This document shows, piece by piece, positions 9,439 to 30,520 of a stretch of DNA of 32,571 bases. Numbering within the stretch: the stretch's first letter is position 1; each line of letters opens with the position of its first letter. The notes below the pieces were generated by a model. That model was not told where the DNA came from. It ran no database searches and was given only the letters and a program-made list of their open reading frames with translations. This stretch comes from PVC group bacterium (GTDB lineage Bacteria; Auribacterota; Erginobacteria; Erginobacterales; Erginobacteraceae). The translations under genes and the position numbers were made by a program. The stretch covers positions 1-32,571 of the forward strand of contig JAZDIV010000141.1 of assembly GCA_043804695.1 (NCBI GenBank), read 5' to 3'.

Positions 9439-9470
9439 GGAGAAGGGAGAGCGGAGTTTCGGAATTTTAT

Positions 9471-9499
9471 TAAATTAGCGAGCAAAGCGAGCTAATTTA
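9471..9499 (+). repeat. Start-codon-proximal hairpin, copy before murF
   Basis: TAAATTAGC-gagcaaagcga-GCTAATTTA, ending 2 nt before the ATG. Confidence 0.8.
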
Positions 9500-9501
9500 T
9501 A

Positions 9502-10962
9502 ATGGAACCGCAGACACTGCAAACCATCGTCGCCTGGTCGGGCGGGACACTGCTCAGCGGCGACCCGGCGGCGCGGACAACCGGCATCAGCATCGACAGC
9601 CGGTCCGTGCGGCCGGGAGAGCTTTTTCTGGCTCTCCCCGGAAAGAGATGCGATGGGCACGACTATGCCGCCGAGGCACTGTCCCGGCAGGCGGCCGGCG
9701 TGATTATCTCCCGGCCGGTCCCGGAAATCGGCCGGTGGCCGGCGGGAGGGGCCCTGATCCGGACGGCGGATTCTTTCCGGGCCCTGGCCGGCCTAGCCCG
9801 GGGGTACCGGGCTCTTTTTGACCTGACCGCCGTCGCCGTGACCGGCAGCAACGGCAAGACCACCACCAAGGACCTGATCGCCCGGCTCCTGAACGCCCGG
9901 ATGGAGACACTCGCCGCCCCGGCCAGTTATAACAATTTGGTCGGGCTCTCGTTGACTATTCTTCGATTGGAAAAGCGCCACCGGGCGGTCGTCTTTGAAC
10001 TGGGGATGAACCGGCCAGGAGAGATCCGGGAACTGGCGGACATCTGCCGTCCCGGGGCCGGGGTGATTACCAATGTCGGCCTGGCCCATATCGGTTATTT
10101 TGGGAGCGTCGATGAGATCGCTGCCGAGAAGGAGGCATTGCTGGGGGGATTGACGGGTGAAAAAGCGGCTTTTCTGAATGTCGACGACCGCCGGGTGGCC
10201 GCCATGGCCGGCTCCGCCCGGGGGCCGGTGATCGGGTTCGGATTCGGTCCCTCCGCCCGGATCCGGGCTTCCGATCCGCAACTGCTGCCGGACGGGGCCC
10301 GGTTCAGAGTCGCCCTCTCCGGAGGAGAATTGACGATCGATTCGCCGCTCCCCGGGCGCCACAATCTCTATAACCTTCTGGCCGCCCTGGCGGTCGCCGA
10401 CCATTGCGGCGTCCCTCCGGAGACGATACGGGAAACAGTCCGGACGGCCGCCCTCCCTCCCCGGCGCCTGGAGAAGGTCAGGGTCGGGGAGGCAACGGTC
10501 ATCAACGACGCCTATAACGCCAACCCCGCCTCGATGCGGGCCGCTCTCGAGGCCTGGCTGGGGATGGAAAGCGGCGGGCGCCGAATAATGGTCAGCGGCG
10601 ACATGAATGAACTGGGGACCTTTTCCGTTGCCGAGCATCGGGCCTGGGGAGCCGTCCTGGGCGGCGCCGGGCTGGATCGCCTGATTTTTGTCGGCCCCCG
10701 CTCGCGGGATGCCGCCGCCGCCGCCGTCGATCGGGGATTCCCCGGGAAGAAGGTGCACGCCGTCGGGGACTGTCGGGCGGCGGCGGCGGTGCTCCGTGAT
10801 GTCATTCGCCCGCGAGACAGCATCCTCATCAAGGGCTCCCGGGTGATGGAGATGGAGGAGATCGTGGAGGAGTTAACAAACAATACCAAAAGCAAAGCGC
10901 AAAATGCTGATGTCGATGCGGCCTGTACGGCATCTGAAAGGAATAATGGAGTACTGGAGTAA
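9502..10962 (+). CDS. murF: UDP-MurNAc-pentapeptide synthetase
   Basis: DSR, TGSNGKTTTK, ELGMN, DAYNANP.SM and KGSR motifs. The C-terminal tail runs into a repeat. Confidence 0.96.
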   Translation: MEPQTLQTIVAWSGGTLLSGDPAARTTGISIDSRSVRPGELFLALPGKRCDGHDYAAEALSRQAAGVIISRPVPEIGRWPAGGALIRTADSFRALAGLARGYRALFDLTAVAVTGSNGKTTTKDLIARLLNARMETLAAPASYNNLVGLSLTILRLEKRHRAVVFELGMNRPGEIRELADICRPGAGVITNVGLAHIGYFGSVDEIAAEKEALLGGLTGEKAAFLNVDDRRVAAMAGSARGPVIGFGFGPSARIRASDPQLLPDGARFRVALSGGELTIDSPLPGRHNLYNLLAALAVADHCGVPPETIRETVRTAALPPRRLEKVRVGEATVINDAYNANPASMRAALEAWLGMESGGRRIMVSGDMNELGTFSVAEHRAWGAVLGGAGLDRLIFVGPRSRDAAAAAVDRGFPGKKVHAVGDCRAAAAVLRDVIRPRDSILIKGSRVMEMEEIVEELTNNTKSKAQNADVDAACTASERNNGVLE

Positions 10963-11028
10963 TGGAGTGATGGAAACCGGCCGGGTGCCTGGGCAGTCTC
11001 TCCCAATACTCCAGTACTCCAATACTCC
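10940..11028. repeat. Inverted pair of 8-bp tandem arrays (GGAGTAAT / ATACTCCA)
   Basis: ggaataat ggagtact ggagtaat ggagtgat gg ... ccaatact ccagtact ccaatact cc. Confidence 0.85.
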
Positions 11029-11101
11029 CGGTTGTTTATTCGGGAATTCTAAGAATAAGAATATATCCGGCCAAGGATTTTTTTAGAAGCAGAGGTGTCC
11101 C

Positions 11102-12205
11102 ATGCTTTACTACATCTTTTACCCGCTCCGGAATGTCTGGTTCGGGTTCAACGTCTTCAAGTACATAACCTTCCGGGCGGCGGCGGCGGCGGTCACCGCC
11201 TTCCTCCTCACTATCGTCTTCGGCAAACCGATCATTGCCCGGCTCCGGGAACTGAAGGTCGGGGAGAAGATCCGGAGCGGCCGTTATTATGAAACCCTTC
11301 ATCAGTACCAAAAAGGGAAAGAAGGGACTCCCACCATGGGAGGCCTGATCATCCTCCTTTCAGTGCTGCTGGCCACTCTTTTCTGGGCCCGCCTGGCAAC
11401 GTTGCAGGTGCAGGTGATAGTGGTCTCTTCCCTCTGGCTGGGTCTGATCGGTTTTATCGACGACTGGATTAAGCTGCGGGGCCTCGGCCGTCGGGGGCTC
11501 CCGGGAAAAGTCAAGCTGGCCGGCCAGGTGCTGCTGGGGCTGGGGATCGCCCTTTTCCTCCTCCATCATCCGGAGACCTCTTCGTATGCCGCCCACCTCC
11601 GGATCCCGTTCTACAAGCACGTTGTCATCCAGGACCTGGGGATCTTTTCCATTTTCTTCACGATCCTGGTTCTGGTCGGGAGCACCAACGCGGTCAATCT
11701 GACCGACGGCCTGGACGGCCTGGCGATCGGGTGCCTGTCCATCGCCGCTCTCGCCTTTGCCGCGCTGTCCTATGTTATCGGGCACGCCCGGTTCGCCGAG
11801 TATCTCCAGGCGTTCTACATCCCCGGAGCGGGAGAACTGGCGGTCTTCTGCGCCGCCCTCGGGGGCGCCGGGCTCGGTTTTCTCTGGTTCAACGCTTACC
11901 CGGCCCAGGTCTTCATGGGCGATACCGGGGCGCTGGCCTGCGGGGGAGCCATCGGGACGGTGGCGGTTTTGATCAAGAAGGAGCTCTTTTTAATTTTAAT
12001 CGGAGGCGTCTTCGTCATCGAGGCCGCCTCGGTTATCCTCCAGGTGATTTCCTTCAAGCTGTGGGGCCGCCGGATCTTCAAGATGGCCCCGCTCCATCAT
12101 CACTTTGAGCTGCAGAATATCCCGGAGAGCAAGATCACCGTCCGCTTCTGGATCTGCGCGGTCGTCTTTGCCTTGATCGGGCTGGGAGCTCTGAAGGTGC
12201 AATGA
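11102..12205 (+). CDS. mraY: Phospho-MurNAc-pentapeptide transferase
   Basis: K.GTPTMGG, GFIDD, NAVNLTDGLDGL, VFMGDTG and APLHHHFE motifs. Confidence 0.98.
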   Translation: MLYYIFYPLRNVWFGFNVFKYITFRAAAAAVTAFLLTIVFGKPIIARLRELKVGEKIRSGRYYETLHQYQKGKEGTPTMGGLIILLSVLLATLFWARLATLQVQVIVVSSLWLGLIGFIDDWIKLRGLGRRGLPGKVKLAGQVLLGLGIALFLLHHPETSSYAAHLRIPFYKHVVIQDLGIFSIFFTILVLVGSTNAVNLTDGLDGLAIGCLSIAALAFAALSYVIGHARFAEYLQAFYIPGAGELAVFCAALGGAGLGFLWFNAYPAQVFMGDTGALACGGAIGTVAVLIKKELFLILIGGVFVIEAASVILQVISFKLWGRRIFKMAPLHHHFELQNIPESKITVRFWICAVVFALIGLGALKVQ

Positions 12206-12264
12206 ACCGGGGAGAACAGAGTGCGCCGTCTTTTTAATTTTCCAGAAGCAAGCCGGCAGGTGAG

Positions 12265-13656
12265 ATGAACGGCATTATGGAAATAAAGGGGAAAAAGGCG
12301 CTGGTTCTCGGGCTGGGGCTGAGCGGGGAGGCGGCGGCGGAACTTCTCTTGAAAGAAGGGGCGTCGGTCACCGTGATCGACGACGGCGCCGGACCCCTCC
12401 TGCAGGAACGGGGCGCCCGGCTCAGCGAGATGGGGGCGAAGGTCGTGCTGGGGCGGGGAGGAACCGGCGCCGCCGGTTCTTTTGATCTGGCGGTCCTCAG
12501 CCCGGGGATCCCGCCTTCCCATCCGGCCCTTGTCCGGGCCCGGGAGATGGGGATCCCGGTCGCCGGGGAGGTCGAGCTGGCGGCGCGCTTCCTGCCGGGA
12601 CCGGTGATCGCCGTGACCGGGACCAATGGCAAGACCACGACGGTGAGTTTGATCGTCGAGATGTTCCTCCGGGCCGGTCTCCCCGCGGTGGCCGCGGGGA
12701 ACATCGGCTATCCCCTTTCCCGGGTTGCCCTGGAAAAGAAAACGGGCCTCACGGTCGTGGCGGAGATCAGCTCCTTCCAGCTGGAAGGGGCGGGCTTCTT
12801 CCGTCCGGGGACGGCGGTTTTTTTGAATCTGGATCCCGATCATCTGGACCGGTATCCGGAGATGTCGGATTACCTGGCCGCCAAGCTGCGGATTTTCCGG
12901 GACCAGGGGCCGGGTGACCGGGCGGTAATGCCGGAGCGCCTCCTGCCCCTGCTGGGAAAGGCCGTCCCCGGCGGCGTGGAGATACGCACCTGGGGAGGGC
13001 GGGAAGGGATGGTCCGGGAAGAAGGGGGGAGCATCTGGCTGGTTCGTCCCGCGGGGCGGGAGAGAATATGCAAGGAGAGCGAGATCCTGCTTCGGGGACC
13101 GCATAACCGGGAAAACGTAATGGCGGCCGCCGCGGCCGCCGTCCTGGCGGGACTGCCGGCCGGGGAGGTCGGTGCGGCGGTCCGCTCTTTTCGCGGGCTG
13201 CCCCACCGGCTGGAATATGTTGCCGACATCGCCGGCGTCCGGTTCTACAACGACTCCAAGGTGACCAATCCGGGAGCGGTCCGGGCGGCCCTGAAATCCT
13301 TTGACCGGCCGGTGATCTGGCTGGCCGGGGGGAGCGATAAGAACCTGGACTTCTCGCCCCTCGGGCCGCTCCTCGGGCGTGCGGTCACGCTGGCGCTGCT
13401 GATGGGGGAAAGCCGGGAGAAACTGCGCTGCCTGGTTGACGGCCGGGTTCCCTTTTTGACGGTCTCCGGGCTGGAGGAAGCGGTGAGCGAGGCTTTCCGG
13501 CGGTCCGGGCCGGGCGATGTCGTCCTGCTCTCGCCCGGCTGCGCCAGCTTCGACATGTTCGCCGACTACCGCGAGCGGGGAGACAGGTTCAAGGAAATTG
13601 TCGGGAAAATGAGTGTTCAGGCCGTTCAAACGGCTCAAACGGTTAAAACAGCTTAA
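12265..13656 (+). CDS. murD: UDP-MurNAc-L-Ala:D-Glu ligase (start may be 12277)
   Basis: GLGLSG, SPGI, TGTNGKTT, EISSFQL, DHLDRY, PHRLE, NDSK.TN and LLSPGCASFD motifs. Confidence 0.97.
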   Translation: MNGIMEIKGKKALVLGLGLSGEAAAELLLKEGASVTVIDDGAGPLLQERGARLSEMGAKVVLGRGGTGAAGSFDLAVLSPGIPPSHPALVRAREMGIPVAGEVELAARFLPGPVIAVTGTNGKTTTVSLIVEMFLRAGLPAVAAGNIGYPLSRVALEKKTGLTVVAEISSFQLEGAGFFRPGTAVFLNLDPDHLDRYPEMSDYLAAKLRIFRDQGPGDRAVMPERLLPLLGKAVPGGVEIRTWGGREGMVREEGGSIWLVRPAGRERICKESEILLRGPHNRENVMAAAAAAVLAGLPAGEVGAAVRSFRGLPHRLEYVADIAGVRFYNDSKVTNPGAVRAALKSFDRPVIWLAGGSDKNLDFSPLGPLLGRAVTLALLMGESREKLRCLVDGRVPFLTVSGLEEAVSEAFRRSGPGDVVLLSPGCASFDMFADYRERGDRFKEIVGKMSVQAVQTAQTVKTA

Positions 13657-13686
13657 ACGGCTCAAACGGTTAAAACGGCTCATACT
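13615..13686 (+). repeat. Eight degenerate copies of a 9-bp unit (GYTCAAACG) spanning the murD stop
   Basis: gttcaggcc gttcaaacg gctcaaacg gttaaaaca gcttaaacg gctcaaacg gttaaaacg gctcatact. Confidence 0.85.
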
Positions 13687-13725
13687 GAATACAACAGGGA
13701 ATCCGTAACCAAAGGAGGGAGCGGG

Positions 13726-14160: not shown

Positions 14161-14166
14161 CTGGAC

Positions 14167-14381
14167 CCTGTTCGAAAAAGTTTTCGAGCAGGAAATCCTA
14201 AATCCTAATATCGAAATCCTAAATAAATCCAAAATCCAAATGACCAAATATCCACATATCGCGACGCTGGGCAAAATTATTTTGAATTTATGATTTTGGT
14301 CATTTGATATTATTTAGGATTTCGTATTTTCCGCCAGAGGCGTATCAGCCTTTGGCTGTAGATTTTAGAATTTTAGAGCTT
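14167..14381. repeat. Hairpin plus inverted 7-bp arrays (AAATCCW) with a nested GC palindrome
   Basis: cctgttcgaaaa-ag-ttttcgagcagg, then aaatcct aaatcct aatatcg aaatcct...aatgacc aaat. The right arm tttggtcatttgatattatttaggatttcg is its inverse. Confidence 0.85.
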
Positions 14382-14499
14382 AAGATTTTTTCGAGTAAGC
14401 TCTATCTGTCTCCCGCCGCCGGAGAAAATGGTCGAAAGAGCAGGGGAGGCATAGATGACAGGTCGGGCGTGAGCATCTCCGCCCCGAGTATTGATTGTT

Positions 14500-18323: not shown

Positions 18324-18336
18324 AAAACATCTATGT

Positions 18337-18492
18337 GGATCAGATAATCAGAAGATCAGTGGGCAGAATACCAGGATATCAGAGGATCAGTCGGCGCGGC
18401 CGGCGGGCAGTTTTAACTTTAGGCACTTCAGGCACTTCTCCGCCGGAGGCGGATCAGCCTCTGGTTGAAAACATTAGGCACTTTAGGCACTT
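18337..18492. repeat. Composite junction: 8-bp ATCAG array, then a 9-bp TTAGGCACT array interrupted by a double-hairpin palindrome
   Basis: ggatcaga taatcaga agatcagt...; tttaggcacttcaggcactt [ctccgccggaggcggatcagcctctggttga] ttaggcactttaggcactt, then ATG. Confidence 0.85.
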
Positions 18493-19452: not shown

Positions 19453-20285
19453 AATGGCTTTCATTGAGCAGCAAGCTCAGCCGCCCCCGCTCGAATGTGA
19501 AGATGAACGCGGCGGTCAAGCGGCGGAAAAAGAAAAACTCCGCTCCCGCCGGTTCCCGGCCCGGCGGGGGGCGGAGGGCGGGGAGTGTCATCCTGTTCAT
19601 CCTCTTTCTCGCCGCCCTGGGCGGGGGAGGGTGGTGGCTGATGCGGAGCTCGAAAATGTTTATCGTCAGGGAGATCCGGATCCGCAACAACCATGCCTAT
19701 ACCGAGCAAGAGATAATGGAGATGACCGGTCTGGAGACGGGGGGAAACATTTTTTCCCTGGATCCCGCCGCCGCCCGGGACAACCTCCTTCATAATAGTG
19801 ATTTCCGCGACGCCCGCGTGGAACGCATTTTCCCGGACCTGGTCCAGGTCGATGTCGTGGAGCGCGAGCCCCGCGCCCGGGTGCATTTCGGGCAGCTCTA
19901 TACGATCGACGACAGGGGGGTTGTTCTCGGCCCCCGCAAATCGGCTCCGGAGGCCCGGCTCCCGATCATCCGCGGGCTGAAGGTGGTCAATAACAGCCGG
20001 GATCTGTCCCCGCCCGACAAGAAGGACGCCTGTCTGCGCCTCCTGCGAGAACTGGAGGAGCAGGGCATCGGGTCTTTGGTCAGGATCGATGAAATCAGGA
20101 TCTTCTCCTCTGACCTGATCGAGATGAAAACGGAAGGGGAGATGGAGATCACCCTCGGCCAGGAGGATTACGGCGAGCAGCTGATGCGTCTGAAGACGGT
20201 GCTCAACAAGCTGGGATCGGATCTGGACCGGGCCCGGGAGGTGGATCTCCGATACTCCCGGATCCCGGTGGTCTTCGATGATTGA
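19449..20285 (+). CDS. ftsQ: Cell division protein FtsQ/DivIB
   Basis: AAGGAGG RBS, ATG overlapping the ddl stop, basic N-tail, one TM helix, POTRA domain (V.R.FPD...V.ER.P) and C-terminal VDLRY. Confidence 0.92.
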   Translation: MKWLSLSSKLSRPRSNVKMNAAVKRRKKKNSAPAGSRPGGGRRAGSVILFILFLAALGGGGWWLMRSSKMFIVREIRIRNNHAYTEQEIMEMTGLETGGNIFSLDPAAARDNLLHNSDFRDARVERIFPDLVQVDVVEREPRARVHFGQLYTIDDRGVVLGPRKSAPEARLPIIRGLKVVNNSRDLSPPDKKDACLRLLRELEEQGIGSLVRIDEIRIFSSDLIEMKTEGEMEITLGQEDYGEQLMRLKTVLNKLGSDLDRAREVDLRYSRIPVVFDD

Positions 20286-20287
20286 AA

Positions 20288-20353
20288 TCTTATTTTTCCT
20301 CCGGAAAAATAAGAGTGAATTAATTAAATTAACGACCGTAGGGCGTTAATTTA
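20288..20353. repeat. Two hairpins filling the ftsQ-ftsA junction
   Basis: TCTTATTTTTCC-tcc-GGAAAAATAAGA (20288-20314) and TAAATTAACG-accgtaggg-CGTTAATTTA (20325-20353). Confidence 0.85.
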
Positions 20354-20358
20354 TAAGA

Positions 20359-21585
20359 ATGAGTAAGCACCGCGACATCATCGCCGCCCTCGATGTGGGA
20401 ACGACCAAGATCTGCCTTCTGGTGGCCGAGCGGGTCGAAAACGGAGATATTCGCATTCTGAGCGCGGGAACCCAGCCGTCCCGCGGTTTGCGCAAGGGCG
20501 AGGTGATCAATGTTGCCCAGACCGTGGACTCGATCGAGAAGACCTTTTCCCAGGTGGAGAACATCTGCGAGGTCGAGATCAGTTCCGTCTTCGCCGGAAT
20601 TACGGGAAGCCATATCCAGAGTTACAACAGCCGGGCGGTTTTGCCGGTCGCCAACCCGGCGGTCGGAGTGACGGAAAAAGACATGCTCAACGCGATCGAG
20701 GCCGCCCGCTCCGTCGCGCTCCCCCGGGAATGCGAGATTTTGCATACCATCCCGCAGGAGTTCTCGGTTGATGACCGGGAGGGGATCGCCGACCCCGAAG
20801 GGATGCAGGGGACCCGGCTGGAGGCCCGGGTCCACCTGGTGACCGGCCGGACGGCCGCGATCCGGGACATCGCAAACTGCATCAACCAGGCCGGTCTCGC
20901 CGTCGCTGAAGTCGTCCTCCAGCATCTGGCCTCCAGCCTGGCGGTGGTGAGGAAGGAGGAACAGCAGTCCGGGGTGGTGCTGGTCGACATCGGCGGCGGG
21001 ACCACGGATTATGTTTTTCTCCGGGATGAGACTGTCTGGCACACGGGGGTCTTGTCCGTGGGCGGCGATCACGTCACCAATGATATCAGCCTGGGGATGA
21101 AGCTTCTCCTCCGCCAGGCCGAGGAACTGAAAAAGAAATACGGTTCCGCCCTTCACGATCGGGTGAAAGATGACGCCGGTCTCTTCCTGCCGGAGGCCCT
21201 GGTCCGGTCCGTTGACGGCCTTTCCCGCAGGAAGCTCTGCCAGATCATCGAGCTGCGGCTGGTTGAGCTTTTCCGGTTGATCCGCCGGGATCTGGAAAAA
21301 GCAGGTCATTTTCAGTCCATCGGTTCGGGTCTGGTGCTGACCGGGGGGAGTGCCCTGCTGAAGAATATCGCCGACCTGGCCGAGCGGGAAACCGGTTTGC
21401 CGGTCAGGATCGGTACCCCGGCCGGCGTCTCGGGCCTGCGGGAAGTGATCGACAGCCCGGTCTATTCCACCGCCGTCGGGCTGATCAAATACGGCTTCCG
21501 GCCGGAGCGTCCCCGGCCGGCCGGGGACGCCTCTCCGGTGAAGTTCATCGGCGGATTGAAACGCTGGCTGGGACGGTATTTTTAA
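20359..21585 (+). CDS. ftsA: Cell division protein FtsA
   Basis: ALDVGTTKI, VDIGGGTT, GGDHVT.DI, VLTGG.A.L and P.YSTAVGL motifs; C-terminal amphipathic helix LKRWLGRYF. Confidence 0.97.
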   Translation: MSKHRDIIAALDVGTTKICLLVAERVENGDIRILSAGTQPSRGLRKGEVINVAQTVDSIEKTFSQVENICEVEISSVFAGITGSHIQSYNSRAVLPVANPAVGVTEKDMLNAIEAARSVALPRECEILHTIPQEFSVDDREGIADPEGMQGTRLEARVHLVTGRTAAIRDIANCINQAGLAVAEVVLQHLASSLAVVRKEEQQSGVVLVDIGGGTTDYVFLRDETVWHTGVLSVGGDHVTNDISLGMKLLLRQAEELKKKYGSALHDRVKDDAGLFLPEALVRSVDGLSRRKLCQIIELRLVELFRLIRRDLEKAGHFQSIGSGLVLTGGSALLKNIADLAERETGLPVRIGTPAGVSGLREVIDSPVYSTAVGLIKYGFRPERPRPAGDASPVKFIGGLKRWLGRYF

Positions 21586-21588
21586 TCT

Positions 21589-21753
21589 ACTGCGTTGGAA
21601 TTTCAATAATTATTAGCCACCAAGACACAAAGACACCAAGAAAAAAAAGGGTAAAATATTCACCTTATTCGATTTTCCTTAGTGCCTTGGTGTCTTGATG
21701 GCGGAAAGGTGCGCCGAAGGCGCTAATTTATCATATTTTTCCTCAGGAAAAAT
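21589..21753. repeat. Composite junction: left-end motif, inverted 9-bp arrays, half hairpin, TTTTTCC/GGAAAAA hairpin
   Basis: actgcgttggaatttcaataat; gccaccaagacacaaagacaccaag ... cttagtgccttggtgtcttgatggc (21/25 inverted match); gcgcc-gaa-ggcgctaatttat; atttttcc-tca-ggaaaaat. Confidence 0.85.
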
Positions 21754-21768
21754 TGGCGGAGAAGACAC

Positions 21769-22899
21769 ATGAGCAAGGGAAAAACTGAAAAGAAAATTTC
21801 CCTCTGGGGGGTCGGCCACTGGGGCGTGCGGGTGGCCGGGTCGATGCCGGATGAGTATCGTCGCCGGCTGAAAATCGTGGCGGTCGATTCGGATGTCCAG
21901 TCCCTGATCTGTTCGCCGGTCGCTGACAAGCTAACCCTCGGATGGGAGGAAGCCGCCGGGCGGTCCGCCGGCGGTGATGGCGGCAAGGGCGAAGAAGCAT
22001 TCCGGGAGAGTGCGTCGGCCATCAAGGAGAAACTGGCTGATTGCCGGGTGGCCCTGATCGTCGGCGGACTGGGAGGGGGAACGGGGAGCAGCCTGATCCC
22101 GGCGCTCTGCGGCACCGCGCGCGGTTTGAAGATTCTGACCCTGGCCCTGGTGACGCGCCCGTTTGCCTTTGAGGGGAAAAAGAAGAACCTGCTCTTCCAG
22201 CGGGCGCGGGAGGGGATTGAAAAAAGCGGGGCGGGCCTGGCCTGTTTTTCCCTGGATCGCCTGGTCGGCAAGGCTGAAGACGATACCCCTCACGACGAGG
22301 TTTTCCAACGCTGCGACCGGATATTGCAGGAAGCGGTCGAGTGCGTGATCGACTGCCTGTCGCCATCCCCCGGGTCGGGATGCGACGGCGCCGCGCTGGA
22401 AAATATTTTGACCGCGCCCGGAGAAACCGTGATGGGCGCGTATGAGACGGCGAAGCCGGAGAATCTGGTGGCGGCGGCGAAGGGCGCGTTCTCGGCGCTT
22501 TCTCTCCGACCCGCCGAACTGGGCCGGGCGCGGGGATTCTTGATTCAGATTGAGGCTGCCGGGCCGATTCCCTTCCGCCATGTCGAGCAGGCGGTCGGAG
22601 CGGTCTCCGGGCGGCTGGCCGAGGACGCGGACCTCCTCTACGCCGTCACCCGAAAAAAGGAAGCGGGGGACAAGATCATCGTCCGCATCATCGCCTTCGG
22701 GATTCCGGAGAGGGGAGGGGAGAAGATCGCGTCCGCGATCCCGGTCACCATGACGACCGACGTCCGCCCGGCTGTTCAGACGGAGATCGACTTCAAGAAG
22801 CTGACCCGGGGGGTGTTTGCCGACACCGGCCCCACGCTTCTCGACGGGGAGGACCTGGACATCCCGACATTCGTCAGGAAAGGGGTCGAGCTGGAATAA
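21769..22899 (+). CDS. ftsZ: Divergent cell division protein FtsZ
   Basis: GLGGGTGS tubulin signature, VTRPF.FEG, C-terminal GEDLDIPTFVR, position after ftsA. The T1 and T7 loops are non-canonical. Confidence 0.9.
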   Translation: MSKGKTEKKISLWGVGHWGVRVAGSMPDEYRRRLKIVAVDSDVQSLICSPVADKLTLGWEEAAGRSAGGDGGKGEEAFRESASAIKEKLADCRVALIVGGLGGGTGSSLIPALCGTARGLKILTLALVTRPFAFEGKKKNLLFQRAREGIEKSGAGLACFSLDRLVGKAEDDTPHDEVFQRCDRILQEAVECVIDCLSPSPGSGCDGAALENILTAPGETVMGAYETAKPENLVAAAKGAFSALSLRPAELGRARGFLIQIEAAGPIPFRHVEQAVGAVSGRLAEDADLLYAVTRKKEAGDKIIVRIIAFGIPERGGEKIASAIPVTMTTDVRPAVQTEIDFKKLTRGVFADTGPTLLDGEDLDIPTFVRKGVELE

Positions 22900-22901
22900 T
22901 T

Positions 22902-23125
22902 TCCTATTTCGGAATGTCAATAATCGGGAAATCCGATTATTGACATTCCGAAATAGGAGAAAAAGCAACTAAAGTAAAAAAATATTAGCTCTGGCTTTAT
23001 TATAGTAAGGGCTTACCGTTACGGACTGATCAGTTGGACGTGAACTGATCCTATGGTTGTTATCAATCAATTTTATATTCTAAAAAATGAAATTTTTCTA
23101 AATTAGCGCCGGAGGCGCTAATTTA
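22902..23125 (+). mobile_element. ~225-bp MITE-like element, copy 1
   Basis: Perfect 26-bp inverted repeat (22902-22958), AT-rich core, and terminal hairpin TAAATTAGCGCC-GGA-GGCGCTAATTTA; homologous to 28041-28270. Mobility is inferred. Confidence 0.6.
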
Positions 23126-23847
23126 TGATTTTTTTCATCAGGATCGCCAAGTTACTGCTGGGGCTCTTCCTCATCCCCGCCTGCGTGTCGGCCACGGTGG
23201 TCTTCGGCCGGGAGATCTTCCCGTCCCTGAAGACCGAGATCTGGTTCTTCGCCGGGCTCTTCAGTTACCTGCTGCTGCTGGCCGTTTTCCAGCAGCCGAT
23301 CCGGACCTATATTTTCGGGCACGAACTGACCCACGTTCTCTGGGTCTGGCTCTTCGGCGGACGGGTCAAGGGCTTCCGGGCGGCGGCAACGGGCGGGGAA
23401 GTCCGCACGTCCAAATCGAATTTTCTCATCTTTCTGGCCCCGTATTTTTTCCCCCTCTACAGCGCGCTGGCCATCGCCGGCTACGGTCTCCTGACCGTTT
23501 TTTTCCAGCTGCCGCCGGTCGCGATGCGGATTCTCAGTTACCTGCTTGGTTTTACCTGGGCGTTTCACTTCACCTTGACCCTGTACGTGCTCATTCAGGG
23601 ACAGCCGGATGTTTGGGCCGCCGGCCGGATTTTTTCCTTCCCTTTTATATATCTCGTGAATGTGGTGGTCCTGGCATCGCTGATTATCTTCGTCACGCCC
23701 CGTCTCTCCTCCGGGACATACTTCTCCCGCCTCTGGGAAAAAGCGTGTCTCGACTACCGGTATCTCTGGACGGCCGGCCCCGGGATCTGCGAGGAGAACT
23801 ACCGCGCCTGCCGGGATAAAGTAGCCGCCCTCGTTGCCGGAAGGTGA
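23125..23847 (+). CDS. Membrane protein with HExxH motif (M50/M50B-like metallopeptidase)
   Basis: Several TM segments; FGHELTH...LFGG.V..F...GGEV...LAPYFFP pattern. Confidence 0.7.
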   Translation: MIFFIRIAKLLLGLFLIPACVSATVVFGREIFPSLKTEIWFFAGLFSYLLLLAVFQQPIRTYIFGHELTHVLWVWLFGGRVKGFRAAATGGEVRTSKSNFLIFLAPYFFPLYSALAIAGYGLLTVFFQLPPVAMRILSYLLGFTWAFHFTLTLYVLIQGQPDVWAAGRIFSFPFIYLVNVVVLASLIIFVTPRLSSGTYFSRLWEKACLDYRYLWTAGPGICEENYRACRDKVAALVAGR

Positions 23848-23986
23848 GCAAAAGCGCCTTCCCGGTTGCCGTCTTTGAACAGTCCCCCCGAAGAGCGGAA
23901 TATCTCTCCTTCCGGGCGCCCGCCGGCCGGGGATACCGGGCAGAAGGGGTGCCGGGCGGGAGGAGAATGCCCGGTGAAGTAAAGTC

Positions 23987-24016
23987 TTGAAATTTTCCCG
24001 GCCGGTCGGGTATCAT
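23987..24016 (+). promoter_or_regulatory. Candidate sigma70 promoter
   Basis: TTGAAA, 18-bp spacer, TATCAT, upstream of the GGAGG RBS and ATG 24069. Confidence 0.4.
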
Positions 24017-24068
24017 ACCATTAAGCAGTTCTTGGAAAAAAATATCAATCGGAGGAGACAGAATCGCC

Positions 24069-24641
24069 ATGAAGAAAAAAGTGACGGCCGGCGCGGTGCT
24101 TTTCCTGGGGGTTGTCTTCATTCTGGCTGTTCCCGCCCGGGGGAGAGATCTCTTTAACATCCTGCGAGTCCGGACCATACCCAACCCGGTGATCGGTGTT
24201 TTTCCGGGAGACGAGGCGCTGGAGGTCACCTTCACGCTTCGCTCTGAACGATGGATCCCGGCGGGGTGGAGCCTCCGGTATTATGATGATTCCCGACGGT
24301 GGCTGGGCACCCAGACCACGGCCTATTTCAGTTCCTCGCAGAACAACCCCTATCTCGTCAGCAAGGGCAGGCTTAAAGGGGGAAATGTCTATGTCGCCCT
24401 CTTCCCGCTCCGTGCGGATGCTCCCTACCTGGTCGTGGCCCTGGGCGACGGATTGGAACAGAAGGCGATTCTCTTTCCGTACACCGATCTCCTTCAGGAT
24501 TTTTCCGTGCCGGTAAAAAGGCTGAACGATGAGATTTCCCGCTCGGACTATGTGTTTATTGAAAAGGAAGAGGATGAAGTGGACATACTGATTGTCAGCG
24601 AGCAATCGCCCGCCGGAATGGCAGGCAAGACCGGGGAATAG
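24069..24641 (+). CDS. Hypothetical secreted protein (190 aa)
   Basis: GGAGG RBS and a typical signal peptide (MKKKVTAGAVLFLGVVFILAVPARG). Confidence 0.75.
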   Translation: MKKKVTAGAVLFLGVVFILAVPARGRDLFNILRVRTIPNPVIGVFPGDEALEVTFTLRSERWIPAGWSLRYYDDSRRWLGTQTTAYFSSSQNNPYLVSKGRLKGGNVYVALFPLRADAPYLVVALGDGLEQKAILFPYTDLLQDFSVPVKRLNDEISRSDYVFIEKEEDEVDILIVSEQSPAGMAGKTGE

Positions 24642-24719
24642 GGGCTGAACTTCAGCGAAAAGGTTGCTGCCCGGGCTTGTTTCCGGTCTCCTCGGGACTA
24701 TACGTTTTACGGCTATTAA

Positions 24720-24887
24720 AGGGGGCGAGGTAGGGAGAAAAAACTGAACGTCCAACGCCGAACGTTCAACGTCGAACATCGAACGTCACCGGGGCGCGGG
24801 ACTAATTTTCTTTCTCTGTGTTCTCCGTGGTTCAAAGAGGGGGCGAGGTAGAGGGAACTCTTGCGTATTTTGCGCTTTTTTGCGGCT
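24720..24887. repeat. Stacked 7-bp and 9-bp arrays bracketed by a 14-bp direct repeat
   Basis: AGGGGGCGAGGTAG at 24720 and 24838; (SAACGTC)x6 at 24746-24787; ctctgtgttctccgtggttc; ttgcgtattttgcgcttttttgcggct. Confidence 0.85.
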
Positions 24888-24893
24888 GCTGCC

Positions 24894-26738
24894 ATGATGG
24901 CTTTTATCGAGGCAATCAAAGAGCGGATCCTGATCGGCGACGGCGCCATGGGGACGCTGCTCCTCTCTAAGGGGATACGCCCCCAGCAGAGTTTCGAATC
25001 CCTCTGCCTGACCGAGCCGGCGGAGATAAAAGCGGTCCATCAGGAGTATATCGCCGCCGGGGCCGACCTGATTGAGACCAACACCTTCGGGGCCAACCGA
25101 TTCCGTCTGCGACCCGCGGGGTATGAACGGCAGGCGGCGCGGATCAATCAGGCGGCCGCGGCCCTGGCCCGGGACGCCGCCGGTGATGCTGTTTTCGTGG
25201 CTGGAGCGGTGGGAATGATCCCCACGCCGGACCGCGAGGCGGCCGGTCAGCGGCCTTCCGAGGGAGGGGAACTCTTCGAGGCCTATCGGGAGCAGATCGC
25301 GGCTCTCGCCGGAGGCGGCGTCGACCTCATCCTCCTGGAGACATTTGAAGAGTGGGAGAATCTCGATCTCGCCATCCGGGCCGCCCGGGAGGTTACCGAT
25401 CTCCCCGTCATCGCCCAGATGGCCTTATCCAACCGCGGCCTCTGCATCTTCGGCCGCATCGCGGAGATCTACTGCCGGCAGGCGCTCGCTGCCGGGGCGT
25501 CTGTCTTCGGGAGCAACTGCGGCGGGGGCTTTTCCTCGGTCCGGGAGGTCCTGAAAGGCGCGGCGGGCGTTGAAGGAGCTCTGCTGTCCGCTTTCCCCAA
25601 CGCCGGTATCCCGCAGATGATCCAGGGAAGGATCATTTATCCGGCTGCTCCGGAGTATTTCGCCGAAAAATGTCTGGAGCTTCTCCCGCTCGGCGTCCGT
25701 CTGATCGGCGGCTGCTGCGGGACCACCCCCCGGCACATCCGTGCTCTCCGCCAGGCGCTGGGCCGGCTCTCCGCCGAACCGGCGGCCCGCCGGGTTGCCC
25801 CGCCGCCCCGGATTGCCGTCGTTCCCCGATCGGAAAAGTCCGTGGAGGGAGGTTTTCTCTCCAGCCTCCGGCGGGACCGGCTCCCGATCATTGTCGAGAT
25901 CGACCCCCCCGCTTCCCCCGACCTGGAGAGGGTGGTCCAGGGCGCCCTGGCGGTCAAAAACGCCGGCGCCGACGCGGTCTCGATGGCGGACAATCCTCTG
26001 GCCGCCCTCAGGGTCAGCTCGATCTGCGCCGGGGGGGTTGTCCGGCGCCGAGCGGGCATCCAGGTCATCCCCCACCTGACCACCCGGGATCATAATATCC
26101 TCGGCCTCCAGTCCATCCTCCTGGGGGCCCAGGTGGAGGGACTGGAGGCCGTCCTGGCCGTTACCGGCGATCCGGCCGGGAAGAGCGACCAGCCCGGGAA
26201 CCGGGGGATATTCACCATCAACAGCATCCACCTGGTGGGCTTGATCGATCAGCTGAACCGGGGCCACATGCTCTCGGGCAAAACAATCGCCCATCCGACC
26301 AGCCTCTCGATCGGGGTCGCCTTTAACGCCAACGCCCCCAACCTGGAGGCGGAAGTGCTCAAGCTCCGCAGGAAGGTCGACAGCGGCGCCCGCTTTGCGC
26401 TGACCCAGCCCGTCTTTACCGCCGATCTGGTCCGGAAAGTCCTGGCGGCCTGTTCCGGCATCGACATCAAGATCTTCGTCGGGATCTATCCCCTCCTCTC
26501 GCTCCGGAACGCCGAGTTCATGGAGAACGAGGTCCCCGGGATCGCCATCCCCCGGGCGGTGAAAGAGAGGATCGCCGGCGCCGGGGACGGCCCCGCCCAG
26601 CGCCGGGCCGGCCTGGAGCTCGCCGCCGGTCTGATCGATGAGATCAGGCCGAAGATCGACGGGCTTTATATCATCAGCCCCCTCAATAAATGGGCCGTCC
26701 CTCTCGAGCTGGTTCGGCGCGTGCGCTCGCAGGAATAG
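24894..26738 (+). CDS. Bifunctional homocysteine S-methyltransferase / methylenetetrahydrofolate reductase (YitJ-like)
   Basis: DGAMGT, AGAD.IETNTFGAN, G.NC, PNAG.P and IGGCCGTTP in the HMT domain; VEIDPP, AD.P.A, H.T.RD.N, AVTGDP, TQPVF and NEVPGI in the MTHFR domain. Confidence 0.93.
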   Translation: MMAFIEAIKERILIGDGAMGTLLLSKGIRPQQSFESLCLTEPAEIKAVHQEYIAAGADLIETNTFGANRFRLRPAGYERQAARINQAAAALARDAAGDAVFVAGAVGMIPTPDREAAGQRPSEGGELFEAYREQIAALAGGGVDLILLETFEEWENLDLAIRAAREVTDLPVIAQMALSNRGLCIFGRIAEIYCRQALAAGASVFGSNCGGGFSSVREVLKGAAGVEGALLSAFPNAGIPQMIQGRIIYPAAPEYFAEKCLELLPLGVRLIGGCCGTTPRHIRALRQALGRLSAEPAARRVAPPPRIAVVPRSEKSVEGGFLSSLRRDRLPIIVEIDPPASPDLERVVQGALAVKNAGADAVSMADNPLAALRVSSICAGGVVRRRAGIQVIPHLTTRDHNILGLQSILLGAQVEGLEAVLAVTGDPAGKSDQPGNRGIFTINSIHLVGLIDQLNRGHMLSGKTIAHPTSLSIGVAFNANAPNLEAEVLKLRRKVDSGARFALTQPVFTADLVRKVLAACSGIDIKIFVGIYPLLSLRNAEFMENEVPGIAIPRAVKERIAGAGDGPAQRRAGLELAAGLIDEIRPKIDGLYIISPLNKWAVPLELVRRVRSQE

Positions 26739-26818
26739 AAGCCCTTCCCGTTCCGGGCATTCCTGCCCGCCGATTGCCGCCGCCGCATTCCTTCTTGATG
26801 CGGGACGTATGCACAATC

Positions 26819-26889
26819 AGCCGATTTCCGCCTGCCGGCAGGTGGAAATCGGTTAAAATTCTTGACTGAGCATCTCAGCATAGTAGAAT
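26819..26889 (+). promoter_or_regulatory. Long hairpin (CCTGCCGGCAGG core) followed by a candidate gap promoter
   Basis: ccgatttccgcctgccggcaggtggaaatcgg; TTGACT (26862), 16-bp spacer, TAGAAT (26884). Confidence 0.5.
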
Positions 26890-26944
26890 TCGCCCCAATC
26901 AGGAACCGCGCCCCACCGGGCACACGAATTAACCGGAGGATATC

Positions 26945-27952
26945 ATGAGTGTAAAGATCGGAATCAACGGGTTCGGGCGGATCGGCCGCCAGATTTTCAG
27001 AATTCTCAACGCGGATCCCGCTTTCGAGGTGGCCGCCATCAACGACCTGACCGATGCCTCCACCCTGGCCCATCTGCTCAAGTACGATTCCGTCCACGGG
27101 AAATTCCCGGGGACGATCAAGGTCTCCGGCGGCAGCCTGGTGGTCAACGGGAAGGAGACAAAGGTTCTCTCCGTTAAAGATCCGGCCGAACTGCCCTGGA
27201 AAGAAGAGGGGGTGGATATCGTGGTCGAGGCGACCGGCGTTTTCAGGAATGTCACCGACCTGAAAAAGCATATCGAGGCCGGCGCCAAAAAAGTTCTCCT
27301 GACGGTCCCCCCCAAGAAAGATCCGGACGGCGAGGTCGAGCTGATCGTGATCGGTGTCAACGACAGGAAACTAACCCCGGCGATGCGGTTTATATCCAAC
27401 GCCAGCTGCACCACCAACTGCCTGGCTCCGATTGCCAAGGTTCTTAACGACAGCTTCGGGATCGAGAGAGGGCTGATGACGACGGTCCATTCCTACACCA
27501 ACGATCAGAGGATACTGGATCTCCCCCACTCGGACCTCCGCCGCGCCCGGGCGGCGGCCGTCAGCATGATCCCCACCACCACCGGCGCCGCCAAGGCGGT
27601 CGGCAAGGTGCTCCCCGAGCTGAAAGGCAGGCTGGACGGTTACGCCCTCCGGGTCCCGACCCCGGACGGCTCCCTGGTCGACCTGACCGTAGAGCTGTCA
27701 AGGGACGCCACGGTTGACGAGGTCAATGCCGCCATCGAGAAAGCGGCATCCGGGGAGATGAAGGGGATTCTGGAGTACGAGCGGGATCCCATCGTCTCGA
27801 TCGATGTCGTCGGGAACCCCGCCTCGTCCGTATTCGACTCCCTGGCGACGATGGAGGTCGGGAAGAGGATGATCAAGGTTCTCGCCTGGTACGACAACGA
27901 ATGGGGATATTCCAACCGCTGCGTCGACCTGCTCAGGTTGATGGCAAAATAA
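26945..27952 (+). CDS. gap: Type I glyceraldehyde-3-phosphate dehydrogenase
   Basis: INGFGRIGR, SNASCTTNCLAP, IPTTTGAAKA and WYDNEWGYS motifs; GGAGG RBS. Confidence 0.99.
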   Translation: MSVKIGINGFGRIGRQIFRILNADPAFEVAAINDLTDASTLAHLLKYDSVHGKFPGTIKVSGGSLVVNGKETKVLSVKDPAELPWKEEGVDIVVEATGVFRNVTDLKKHIEAGAKKVLLTVPPKKDPDGEVELIVIGVNDRKLTPAMRFISNASCTTNCLAPIAKVLNDSFGIERGLMTTVHSYTNDQRILDLPHSDLRRARAAAVSMIPTTTGAAKAVGKVLPELKGRLDGYALRVPTPDGSLVDLTVELSRDATVDEVNAAIEKAASGEMKGILEYERDPIVSIDVVGNPASSVFDSLATMEVGKRMIKVLAWYDNEWGYSNRCVDLLRLMAK

Positions 27953-28012
27953 AAGCCGGTGTTACAGGGATGCCGATTCTGAAAATCTCATATGGGGGTT
28001 CTGACAGCAGAT

Positions 28013-28270
28013 AAATAACAAATCACAAGCACCAAATAACACTGTTTCGGAATTTCAATAATCGGAAAAATCCGATTATTGAACTCCCGAAACAGACGAA
28101 AAAGCAATCAAGATGAGATTAAGCCATTTTTGGATTATGATAAAATGGGTTACTGTTGCTTATTAAGTAGGTGCATACCAACTAATTCCTGGGGCATCAT
28201 CAGTCTGGTACAACTTTTAAAGGTTCAATTAACTCCAATTTACTAAATTAGCGCCGGAGGCGCTAATTTA
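28013..28270 (+). mobile_element. Truncated 7-bp array followed by MITE-like element copy 2
   Basis: aaataac aaatcac aagcacc aaataac; 25-bp inverted repeat with 2 mismatches (28042-28095); terminal hairpin identical to 23099-23125. Confidence 0.6.
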
Positions 28271-28272
28271 TA

Positions 28273-29499
28273 ATGGCTAAACTGGGGATAGAAGATCTCG
28301 ATCTGAAGGGAAAGCGGGTCCTGGTCAGGGTTGACTTCAATGTCCCGCTCGATGGGGACCGCCGGATTACCGACGACACCCGGATCCGGGCCGCCCTCCC
28401 CACGATCAGGTACGTGATCGAGCATGGCGGGAAGGCGATTCTCGTCTCTCACCTCGGCCGTCCGAAAGGGAAGAGGGATCCGGCGTACAGTCTGGGCCCG
28501 GTCGCGGTCCGTCTCTTCGAACTGCTTGATCAACGGGTGGTCTTCGTCGATGACTGCATCGGGCCCGGGGCGAAAGAGGCGGTGAAGAAGATGAAGGACG
28601 GGGACGTCGTCCTCCTCGAGAACCTCCGGTTTCATCCCGGCGAGGAGGCGGGAGACGACGCCTTTGCGCGCGAGCTGGCCGCTCTGGCCGATCTCTACAT
28701 CGACGACGCCTTCGGCACCGCCCACCGCGCCCACGCCTCCATGGTCGGGGTGACCGCCTACCTCGACCGCAGCGCCGCCGGTTTCCTCCTTCAGAAAGAG
28801 ATCGACTACCTGGGAAAAGCTCTCGCGGATCCGGAGCGGCCCTTCATCGCCATCCTCGGCGGAGCCAAGGTCTCCGACAAGATCAAGGTGATCGAGAACC
28901 TGGTCCGCAGCGTCGATTCGATCCTGATCGGGGGCGCCATGGCCTACACGTTCATGAAGGCGATCGGGGTTCCGGTCGGGGCCTCCCGGGTCGAGGAGAT
29001 CATCGAGGACAAGAAAGGAATGGCCATTGATGTCGCCGGACTGGTCCGGGGCATCCTGGAAAAAGCCGCCGCCCGCGGGGTCGAGGTCCTTCTTCCCATC
29101 GACCATGTCGTGGCGGATCGGTTTTCTGAAGACGCCGCGGTCAGGGTCGTCCCCCGGGACGGGATCGCCGCCGGCTGGATGGGAATGGACATCGGCCCCA
29201 GGACCGGCCGGCTGTACGGCGATAAGATCGGGAAGGCCGGGACCGTCGTCTGGAACGGCCCGATGGGGGTGTTCGAGATGAAGCCCTTTGCCGCGGGAAC
29301 GCTGGCCGTTGCCCGGGCCCTGGCCGAATCCTCCGCCCTCTCGATCATCGGCGGGGGCGATTCCGTGGCCGCCGTCAACCGGAGCGGCCTGGCCGGCCGG
29401 ATCACCCACATCTCGACCGGGGGCGGGGCCTCGCTGGAGTTCCTGGAAGGGAAAGTCCTCCCCGGCATCGCCGCCCTGACTGATGGTGTCGCGTCTTGA
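28273..29499 (+). CDS. pgk: Phosphoglycerate kinase
   Basis: [47 protein letters not shown] and STGGGASLE motifs. Confidence 0.99.
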
Positions 29500-29649
29500 C
29501 ATTGGACATTATCATTTTTTGCAGGCATGTTATCTAATTTGCGCCAGGTTAGAAAAATAGTGTATTAGCAGTTTTCTGTTTTTATGATAATGTCCAATGT
29601 CAAGACGCGACACCTATAAGGATAATGTCCAATGTCAAGACGCGACACC
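29485..29649. repeat. Perfect 31-bp inverted repeat with a tandem duplicate of the right arm
   Basis: GGTGTCGCGTCTTGACATTGGACATTATCAT (29485-29515), its exact inverse (29584-29614), and a further 29-bp copy (29621-29649). Confidence 0.92.
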
Positions 29650-30402
29650 AAGCCTTTAATCGCCGGCAACTGGAAACTTCACAAGACCATCCCCGAGGCG
29701 CTGGAACTGGCCGGGGCGTTGAAACGGGACCTCGCCGCCTGTACCGGCGCCGACCTGCTCGTCTGCCCGCCTTTCGTCGACCTGAAGCCGGTCGCCGACC
29801 TGCTTCAGGGAAGCTCCATCGCCCTTGGCGGCCAGGACCTTTTCTGGGAAGACGCCGGTGCCTTCACGGGGGCGATTTCCGGGCCGATGCTCAGGTCGGC
29901 GGGATGCAGCCACGTCATCATCGGCCATTCGGAAAGGAGAGAGCATTTCGGAGACACCGATCAGATCGTGAATAAAAAAATCAGGGCGGCGATCACCTCC
30001 GCTCTCACCCCGATCCTCTGCGTGGGGGAGTCGCTGGAGAAGCGGGAGCAGAAAGTGACCAAGGAGTTTTTACGCAAGCAGCTGGGGCTGGATATCCGGG
30101 GGATCGGCCCGGAGTGGATAGCCCGGATAATCGTTGCCTATGAGCCGATCTGGGCGATCGGGACCGGGATGACGGCCACCCCCCGGCAGGCCGGGGAAAC
30201 CCACCGTTTCATCCGGGAACTCTTCGCCGAACATTACAACGATTCGATCGCGAACAACATCCGGATTCTTTACGGGGGAAGCGTCAAGCCGGATAACGCC
30301 CGGGTTCTGATCGCCGAGGCGGACGTGGACGGCTTCCTGGTTGGCGGCGCCAGCCTGGATGCCGCTGCCTTCGTCGCCATTGCCCGCTGCAGCACAATGT
30401 GA
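29632..30402 (+). CDS. tpiA: Triosephosphate isomerase
   Basis: [29 protein letters not shown] and DG.LVGGASL motifs. Confidence 0.99.
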
Positions 30403-30520
30403 TCTTATTTTTCCTTCGGAAAAATAAGAATGGGCAAGCAATGACCCGATATTGCAGGGATATTTTAAAGTAACTTCATGTAATTCATATAAATTTGCGA
30501 GCGCAGCGAGCTAATTTATA
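30403..30520. repeat. Two hairpins in the tpiA-secG junction, same pair as at ftsQ-ftsA
   Basis: TCTTATTTTTCC-ttc-GGAAAAATAAGA (30403-30429) and TATAAATTtGC-gagcgcagcga-GCTAATTTATA (30488-30520). Confidence 0.85.

Follow-up and report, generated by a model that had tools for sequence, protein, structure and literature searches.

Hairpins beside start codons in a PVC group bacterium are very probably the ter ends of miniature IS91-family transposons

The hairpin that recurs beside start codons in a PVC group bacterium of the Erginobacteraceae is, judging from sequence comparison, very probably the terIS end of small non-autonomous rolling-circle transposons of the IS91 family. It was noticed in a window of 32,571 nt (contig JAZDIV010000141.1 of assembly GCA_043804695.1, positions 1 to 32,571, forward strand), the window being the whole stretch of DNA that was analysed. 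An earlier note had listed six copies just upstream of start codons and had offered two proposals, the right-hand end of an element inserting in front of start codons or a cis-regulatory RNA common to division and glycolysis genes. The first proposal is supported, the element being an IS91-family miniature and the hairpin its terIS. For the observations as a whole, ter ends of IS91-family miniatures are the best explanation and a probable one.

The genome to which the window belongs (G000) is a 2.97-Mb assembly, 88% complete; genes were called with our own codon-model caller and start positions are approximate. The pattern TAAATTWRCG-N5-11-GYTAATTTA gave 8 strand matches in the window, corresponding to five distinct full hairpins, and none in 100 dinucleotide shuffles. 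In the whole assembly, 371 right arms gave 216 distinct hairpins, none of them inside called genes. Orientation and distance to starts, which the earlier note had proposed to examine, were not random: on the strand that carries the GNA or ANA loop, 122 of the 216 hairpins had a called start within 25 nt, against one of 216 on the mirror strand. The loop was of GNA/ANA type in 111 of 131 single-arm copies and of the complement type in 8, and 95 of the 114 longer cores contain tandem G.A pairs. Inner stem pairs swap between G-C and C-G (78 vs 31 in 11-nt cores, 6 vs 85 in 9-nt cores). The outer-stem swap between AGC/GCT and AAC/GTT that had been read from the window is real, with an outer G-C pair in 211 and an A-T pair in 5 of the 216 copies. 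At 312 ter ends the TAA is followed by TTTA (183), GTTC (38), TTAA (18) or CTTG (18), together 257 of 312, and identical hairpin cores were found with different terminal tetranucleotides.

The hairpin has an upstream partner. The motif CTGYTTCGGAATTT has 310 intergenic matches, with a hairpin within 600 nt downstream on the same strand in 74 and on the opposite strand in 4. Two unlike ends occur in the fixed order oriIS to terIS with no true terminal inverted repeats, the arrangement by which the IS91 family is recognised. On one strand the unit reads TAA-NTTN target, oriIS (CTGYTTCGGAATTT), a short body, a GC-rich GNA-loop hairpin, TAA, and then TTTA, GTTC or CTTG. The length from ori to ter is 94-518 bp with a median of 184 (100 pairs). 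A palindrome, TCTTATTTTT..AAAAATAAGA, is often found 3' of the ori motif; it has 46 strand matches and is followed by a TAATTTA hairpin on the same strand in 17 cases and on the opposite strand in none.

Between such ends one transposase relic was found, on contig C70 of the same genome (L239 1197-2227). The order there is GTTC, CTGTTTCGGAATTTC, the relic on the opposite strand, a GAA-loop hairpin with TAA-GTTC, and TA ATG, so that a lipid A acyltransferase gene has its ATG 2 nt past the end of the element. The relic, the sole PF14319 match in the genome, matches PF14319 (4.8e-26) and PF04986 (6e-8) and reads from ter to ori as in IS91. It retains the zinc-binding domain and the HUH motif; about 150 central residues are missing and the reading resumes in another frame. 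A decayed relative with the same two-ended layout is present in genome G051 (L249), and metagenome relatives of the C70 transposase are 412-413 amino acids (aa) long with 77-92% identity. The relatives of at least 380 aa (n=105) have PHxH or THxH in 100 and YxxRY in 104, and seven of them end in PCFGN, which is a reading of the inner arm of the ori palindrome.

The register of both ends agrees with that of described elements. When annotated copies of IS91, IS1294 and one IS801-like element are read on this strand, CTTG, GTTC and GTCC respectively stand 7 nt before GGAA(A/T)TT, matching the register in G000, and the annotated IS801-like ter consists of a GCA-triloop stem, 3 nt and GTTC, which is the architecture of the ter described here. 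The spacing between hairpin and tetranucleotide also agrees with that of the IS91 ter. The available text on the IS91 family describes CTTG and GTTC targets, no duplication, a palindrome beside the terIS cleavage tetranucleotide, and insertion via the single strand opposite tnpA (PMC13181058); general background on ISCR elements is given in PMC13393415 and PMC13023784, as far as these are available. The GNA loops lie on the strand opposite tnpA, i.e. the strand reported to transpose (PMC13181058). Mini-hairpins of the type GCGNAGC are described as unusually stable in DNA, with the RNA counterparts tested being less stable (PMC13037366, available part).

Related full-length elements were found in the order to which G051 belongs. 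Their transposases are 36-40% identical to P0001, a full-length relative, and most have frames open over about 400 aa with HxH and YxxxY. Seven of the 11 loci examined end in TAATTTA (5) or TAATTAA (2), and TAATTTA precedes ori in L274, L278, L281 and L296. L274 also holds a stacked miniature with a GAA-loop hairpin and the end TAATTTA. Viral contigs gave no match to P0001. Units with an integrase and an IS91 transposase in the congener G001, which is listed at 8% contamination, are of a different type without these ends (L237, L240, L244 on contigs C21 and C20; in tandem in C21).

Spread of a REP/BIME-type repeat by a Y1 (RAYT) transposase or another small nuclease (GIY-YIG, GxxExxY, DUF1016) would give GC-rich short palindromes in intergenic mosaics of similar appearance (PMC3184786, PMC3733652, available text), and the genome has six Y1_Tnp matches together with motif matches for GIY-YIG, DUF1016, ORF6N and four-helix-bundle proteins. 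Y1_Tnp is however found in 36 of 41 genomes of a phylum sample against 5 of 41 for the hairpin, which does not discriminate, and the common cores have no GTAG tag at their foot. The commonest left arms are TAAATTA, TAAATTT, TAAAGTA and AAAAGTT, with GTAG only in TAAAGTA-GC and TTAAGTA-GC, where it runs into the stem. REPs are moreover described mostly downstream of coding regions in the available part of PMC3733652, and the IS91 transposase is the only mobile-element gene found between both ends, the flanks of the six Y1 loci not having been individually inspected. This origin is considered very unlikely.

Target preference and stacking were studied on the ori side, after exclusion of 37 of the 310 matches in which a T run before the motif represents the inner arms of the ori palindrome. 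Of the remaining 273 ori ends, 87 stand directly on an older ter hairpin arm and 186 are unstacked. CTTG and GTTC precede 32 of the 186 compared with a background of 0.68% (25-fold; p 1e-34), TTTA precedes 22, and T is found at position 2 in 124. When an ori end lies within 40 nt past an upstream stop it is exactly 4 nt after it in 14 of 54 cases, so that the TAA of a TAA-NNNN target doubles as the stop codon. At 110 ori-ter pairs no target duplication of 3, 4 or 7 bases was detected, four tests all being within the shuffle range, although old, decayed insertions weaken this test. The candidate of a classical miniature inverted-repeat transposable element was rejected because these pairs have no target-site duplication.

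The head-to-tail stacking, and a right arm that stays fixed while the left part changes between congeners, could also suggest an integron-like attC-type site at which cassettes are exchanged before start codons. The left arm shows no complementarity to the upstream heptamer of its unit (3.26 vs 3.37 shuffled) but pairs with the downstream one (4.36 vs 3.98 +/- 0.05 shuffled; 0 of 2000 shuffles reach this value). Since the left arm covaries with the downstream and not the upstream heptamer, and complementarity to its own 5' core site is lacking, attC exchange was rejected as scarcely credible, save with a crossover outside the heptamer.

By analogy with the IS91 family, an IS91-type HUH transposase supplied in trans would copy the miniature as single-stranded DNA. 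The enzyme would nick after the target at ori, peel off the GNA-loop strand, recognise the folded hairpin and cut after the terminal tetranucleotide, and the unit would be joined to the 3' side of another NTTN site. With target sequence at the end of every ter, new units probably land right behind old ter ends at the inherited distance to the ATG, and this distance would stay fixed while core and body turn over.

The strict hairpin pattern occurred in 5 of the 41 genomes of the phylum sample, all from the family of the window's genome, and a looser pattern in 6 of 79. A scan of a wider collection gave at least 73 loci; among the matches listed were Ca. Tritonobacter lacicola, Ca. Euphemobacter frigidus, Ca. 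Scalindua rubra, a Scalinduaceae bacterium and a Planctomycetota bacterium. The orientation is kept among these listed matches: in Tritonobacter, for example, 11 of 17 copies had a start no more than 25 nt away on the loop strand, against one on the mirror strand. In Tritonobacter loci L033, L046, L062, L083 and L089 the same ter hairpin is paired with an ori of the more canonical form GTATAGGAATTT, and after the tetranucleotide the spacing looks longer by one base.

Comparison with two relatives, covering about 0.82 of 2.3 Mb of the same-family genome G004 and 1.17 of 4.5 Mb of the congener G001, showed rapid turnover. At 393 orthologous starts the hairpin was found in G000 at 51, in G004 at 5 and in both at one. 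At 360 starts common with the congener it was found in both at 10, in G000 only at 20 and in G001 only at 9; the 10 common starts have the same core in 3 and a clearly related upstream body in 3. The G004 spacers at murE-murF, ftsQ-ftsA and the junction of ftsZ with the next open reading frame (ORF) are 9-21 nt long, and the murF start of G001 has no hairpin. Hairpins mostly missing in G004, together with kept position but changed content relative to G001, point to lineage-specific arrivals rather than to a conserved regulon. Between two ribosomal-protein-like genes (G000 contig C37 near 819) a 190-nt stack ends in TAA-TATT-ATG; the equivalent site is stop-TATT-ATG in G001 and, in G004, a 19-nt spacer with a Shine-Dalgarno-like stretch, a near-empty site.

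These data bear on the second proposal of the earlier note. A covarying stem, the strong orientation towards starts and an in-context RNA fold (z of -4.3, -4.4 and -2.9 in three copies and of -1.6 and -1.3 in another two) are what a cis-regulatory RNA would give. The roughly 300 ends nevertheless stand at all gene kinds, the 119 genes directly abutted by a ter end are functionally unrelated, and G004 lacks the hairpin at most orthologous starts, as does G001 at murF. The search of Rfam that had been asked for gave no model over the hairpins, the window containing only RNase P RNA and one tRNA. The loops have the GNA form known for stable DNA mini-hairpins, the tested RNA counterparts being less stable in the available account (PMC13037366). 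A conserved regulatory RNA for division and glycolysis genes is therefore extremely unlikely. Two of the five copies in 19900-31000 score terminator-like. A promoter within the hairpin was dropped as a candidate, since sigma-70-like matches in 19900-31000 overlap no copy.

The placement of ter ends was examined in a set of 300, in which hairpins with other terminal tetranucleotides were also allowed and the ATG had to open at least 80 codons. The ends were at -1 to 4 nt from the ATG (flush) in 119, at 5-11 nt in 6, at 12-30 nt in 41 and at 31-40 nt in 5; a further 35 were followed by an ori motif and 94 had neither an ATG in these classes nor an ori. Only 1 of 190 ori ends was flush. Of the 187 TTTA-type ends, 27 lie at 12-30 nt, and in 26 of these a strong Shine-Dalgarno stands past the arm. 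The suggestion that the module brings its own Shine-Dalgarno holds only for GGAGG and GGGAG cores (28 of 93 flush TTTA-type); the commonest flush core, GCGAGCGCAGCGAGC, has none (29 copies). In two window copies GGAGG is 9 and 12 nt from the ATG, as described.

Arms also coincide with stops. Of convergent genes within 40 nt of an arm, 19 of 33 take their stop codon, TAG or TAA, from the arm itself, and several of their proteins are stopped by the arm end a few residues before the C-termini of the orthologues. On G000 contigs C154 near 65 and C148 near 37 a tRNA-like sequence on the opposite strand has its 3' end directly against a ter arm. At three other sites (C47 near 15965, C126 near 3002 and C134 near 390) element ends apparently rewrote the last codons of upstream genes; in an example from these sites the C-terminus is read from the ori motif, and ATGA overlaps that are present in G004 were apparently split in G000.

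Target-like sites in G004 at -1 to 4, 5 to 11 and 12 to 30 nt number 41:12:60, the same bimodal shape as the observed 119:6:41, and are scarce at 5-11 nt, where the Shine-Dalgarno lies. Placement is on balance attributed partly to target choice and partly to selection, with deletions between stacked repeats trimming the spacer. Target choice would fall on AT-rich sites, which occur in the spacer that precedes the ATG and again ahead of the Shine-Dalgarno, with none inside it; selection would tolerate a ter end against the ATG but not an ori end; and deletions between stacked repeats would probably trim what remains of the spacer. Sense preference by inferred replication strand was 79:29 leading and 42:10 lagging (p 0.33), and 133:29 for contig-majority compared with 21:16 for contig-minority genes (p 0.002), so that the two comparisons disagree; both are based on weak skew and short contigs. 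Insertion at tight operon junctions only was rejected, as G004 spacers at flush genes range from -4 to more than 50 nt and are 9 nt or less in just 10 of 33.

Several results weigh against the IS91 explanation. No intact transposase was found by family search or PF14319 search in the 88% complete assembly. The C70 element ends in GTTC and the six window copies in TTTA; the tie between them consists of common cores, the ori motif and stacking, no TTTA-ending element with its own transposase being present in G000, and the full-length TAATTTA-ending elements of relatives have a different ter hairpin, long and AT-rich. A profile of the 105 transposases (at least 10 bits) run over the intergenic bodies matched C70 only, so the element bodies are not demonstrated to be internal deletions; for the same reason an apparent resemblance of the bodies to protein sequence was set aside. 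A clean ori is missing from three of the six copies in the window, and NTTN precedes just 87 of the 186 unstacked ori ends, so that many do not follow it. A clean empty/filled pair from a close strain was not found, the best metagenome match having 78% protein identity. Finally, the flush excess goes beyond target availability (odds ratio 4.2, p 7e-8), and flush target sites number 17 antisense against 41 sense where 1 ori end and 119 ter ends were observed. What remains of the flush excess has to come from selection, from a preference at starts for the non-template strand, or from deletions between stacked copies.

That excess, and the contrast between flush ter and ori ends, would also follow if the ter end had been domesticated as a portable translation-start module, in which hairpin plus AU-rich tail stand in for the Shine-Dalgarno; in a variant, the hairpin would mark a processing site that gives a short or leaderless message and hence the fixed distance to the ATG. 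Such a function is compatible with an IS91 origin and is regarded as possible but doubtful. The position is common to the congeners at 10 starts where approximately 1.6 are expected (p 2e-7), though core and body change, about 9 further pairs judged by eye have a degenerate hairpin in the other genome, 17 of 33 G004 orthologues of flush genes have a Shine-Dalgarno, and Shine-Dalgarno-bearing cores are flush 28:6 compared with 12:9 for fully paired cores without one (p 0.06). On the other hand, flush genes pass the Shine-Dalgarno cut-off less often (40% of 93 TTTA-type vs 53% of 1712 other ATG genes), the predicted RNA stem (-10 to -15 kcal/mol) would cover the ribosome site, the arm is also flush at convergent stops and at a tRNA 3' end, where it serves no start, and stacking onto old ter ends accounts for the kept position without function.

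A bolder version, equally tentative, is that the IS91 miniature homes on starts and in about 5% of genes places its ter end no more than four bases from the ATG, with the Shine-Dalgarno displaced or deleted and the hairpin and AU-rich tail acting as a ribosome-loading or RNA-processing signal. It would cover essential genes such as murF, pgk, ribosomal and tRNA-ligase genes and, if true, would mean that a parasite's DNA cleavage signal was turned into a genome-wide exchangeable translation-start cassette. The stable hairpin predicted in RNA at flush starts raises the question of how these genes are translated: either such bacteria start translation through a hairpin, or start regions are unusually favoured by the element. 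The flush class is a testable puzzle, with 119 genes, many of them essential, 0-4 bases past a stable hairpin and mostly without a clear Shine-Dalgarno.

All six copies are present in the window where the earlier note had placed them, all on the plus strand, and Pfam agrees with the names murF (Mur ligase), ftsA, ftsZ (here ftsZ-like), pgk and secG given to the adjacent genes. The distances from the TAATTTA end to the ATG are 2 nt at murF, 5 at ftsA, -1 at the ORF at 23125, 2 at pgk, 16 at secG and 38 at the ftsZ-like gene. Position just upstream of a start is accordingly right for four copies; the secG copy precedes an intact Shine-Dalgarno and the ftsZ-like copy is not beside a start. At murF a degenerate oriIS remnant with a GGAATTT core (9454..9470; identified from sequence and a motif scan) directly precedes the hairpin at 9471..9499, which has an AAA loop, tandem G.A pairs and the end TAA-TTTA; the relic element is 46 nt long and the ATG is at 9502. 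At ftsA a TCTTATTTTT..AAAAATAAGA palindrome, a likely ori-side remnant, lies just past the ftsQ stop (20287..20314), and the hairpin at 20325..20353 has a GTA loop, an A-T outer pair and the end TAA-TTTA, with the ATG at 20359.

Three copies belong to longer miniatures. The first, of 141 bp (21590..21730), has a degenerate oriIS 4 nt past the ftsA stop, after TAA-TCTA, inverted arms of CCACCAAG at 21616-21702, a partial ter copy with the hairpin at 21711-21723, and the heptamer at 21724-21730; the ftsZ-like gene downstream has its own GGAGA. The second, of 222 bp (22904..23125), has its oriIS 4 nt past the ftsZ-like stop, after TAA-TTTC, an ori palindrome at 22902-22958, an AT-rich body and a ter hairpin with a GGA loop at 23099-23125, the last A of which also opens the ATG of ORF 23125-23847. 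The third, of 229 bp (28042..28270), has an oriIS with palindrome at 28042-28095, preceded by AACA, which is outside the target consensus, an AT-rich body and a GGA-loop ter hairpin at 28244-28270; the pgk ATG follows at 28273. At secG an ori-side palindrome remnant lies directly past the tpiA stop (30403..30429), and the hairpin at 30490..30518, with a GCA loop, tandem G.A pairs and the end TAA-TTTA, is followed by TA, the AGGAG of secG (30521-30525) and the ATG at 30535.

An oriIS-like motif at window position 3292, between a zinc-ribbon gene and the RNase P RNA, has no recognised ter hairpin downstream. Other intergenic repeats are found at 14200-14370, 18339-18490, 24745-24790, 30920-30965, 21616-21702 and 10950-11030; they are short-period arrays and inverted arrays (CCACCAAG, GAACGTT, AAATCC, GGAGTA), some of them nested inside IS91 miniatures. 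At 29484-29650 a sequence of 31-33 nt that includes the first codons of tpiA occurs twice direct and once inverted, overlapping the end of pgk; it seems to supply the ATG and the N-terminal MSRRDT of tpiA, and the inverted copy gives the last codons of pgk. The gene after ftsA (21769-22899) encodes a strongly diverged FtsZ-like protein (Tubulin/FtsZ 4.8e-17, FtsZ_C below cut-off). ORF 23125-23847 encodes 240 aa, membrane-like with an HExxH-type motif, and has no Pfam match; it is conserved after ftsZ in relatives and has 34 metagenome loci with 34-78% identity.

The reading as IS91-family miniatures assigns a mobiliser family to an abundant, previously unexplained intergenic repeat, and indicates that IS91-type elements can give rise to a high-copy two-ended miniature family. 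The literature search, made largely outside subscription papers and wholly outside ISfinder/TnPedia and the older IS91 papers, gave no account of a high-copy two-ended IS91 miniature, nor of ter ends placed beside start codons; its only finds were one-ended fragments of IS801 and laboratory constructs. The construct mini-IS91 carried 89 bp of terIS and 82 bp of oriIS around a marker, with the transposase in trans (PMC13181058, available part). About 300 natural ter and 270 ori ends map the bases kept by a rolling-circle transposase, including the GNA loop on the transferred strand, and these kept bases offer a direct test of terIS recognition.

Like IS91, IS801, IS1294 and ISCR, the elements have two unlike ends with the oriIS core GGAATTT 7 nt inside the junction. 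As in the IS91 family, the terIS is a palindrome followed by 3 nt and a tetranucleotide, CTTG and GTTC are among the targets, no duplication is made, and the transposase gene lies on the opposite strand, from ter to ori. Unlike in that family, there are about 300 ter ends in a 3-Mb genome, nearly all gene-less; TTTA is dominant, within a longer TAA-NTTN heptamer that pairs with the left arm of the hairpin; many cores have tandem G.A pairs; stacking is massive; and 40% of ter ends are at start codons. The IS801 miniatures of Pseudomonas syringae (229, 360 and 679 nt) are similarly small, gene-less, of the IS91 family, mobilised in trans and with a consensus tetranucleotide end, but in the available account they are one-ended, with ori only and no ter stem-loop (PMC3189936), whereas the present elements have both ends and are marked by their conserved ter hairpin. 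Neisseria REP2 and Borrelia IR-A/IR-B are also stem-loop repeats immediately upstream of genes; they carry promoter, ribosome-binding site and ATG, with no known mobiliser described in the available part of the source (PMC3184786). Here, the ATG is the gene's own, the element giving at most the A, most cores have no ribosome-binding site, and the mobiliser family is identified. REP/BIME-RAYT systems share hundreds of strand-specific intergenic palindromes of 20-40 nt in mosaics, an HUH-type enzyme acting on folded single-stranded DNA, and termini that can supply stops (PMC3733652, PMC8266576, as far as available). The elements described here differ from them in having no GTAG tag, a fixed-order oriIS partner, a position mostly upstream of starts, and a link to an IS91 (Y2, zinc-finger) transposase.

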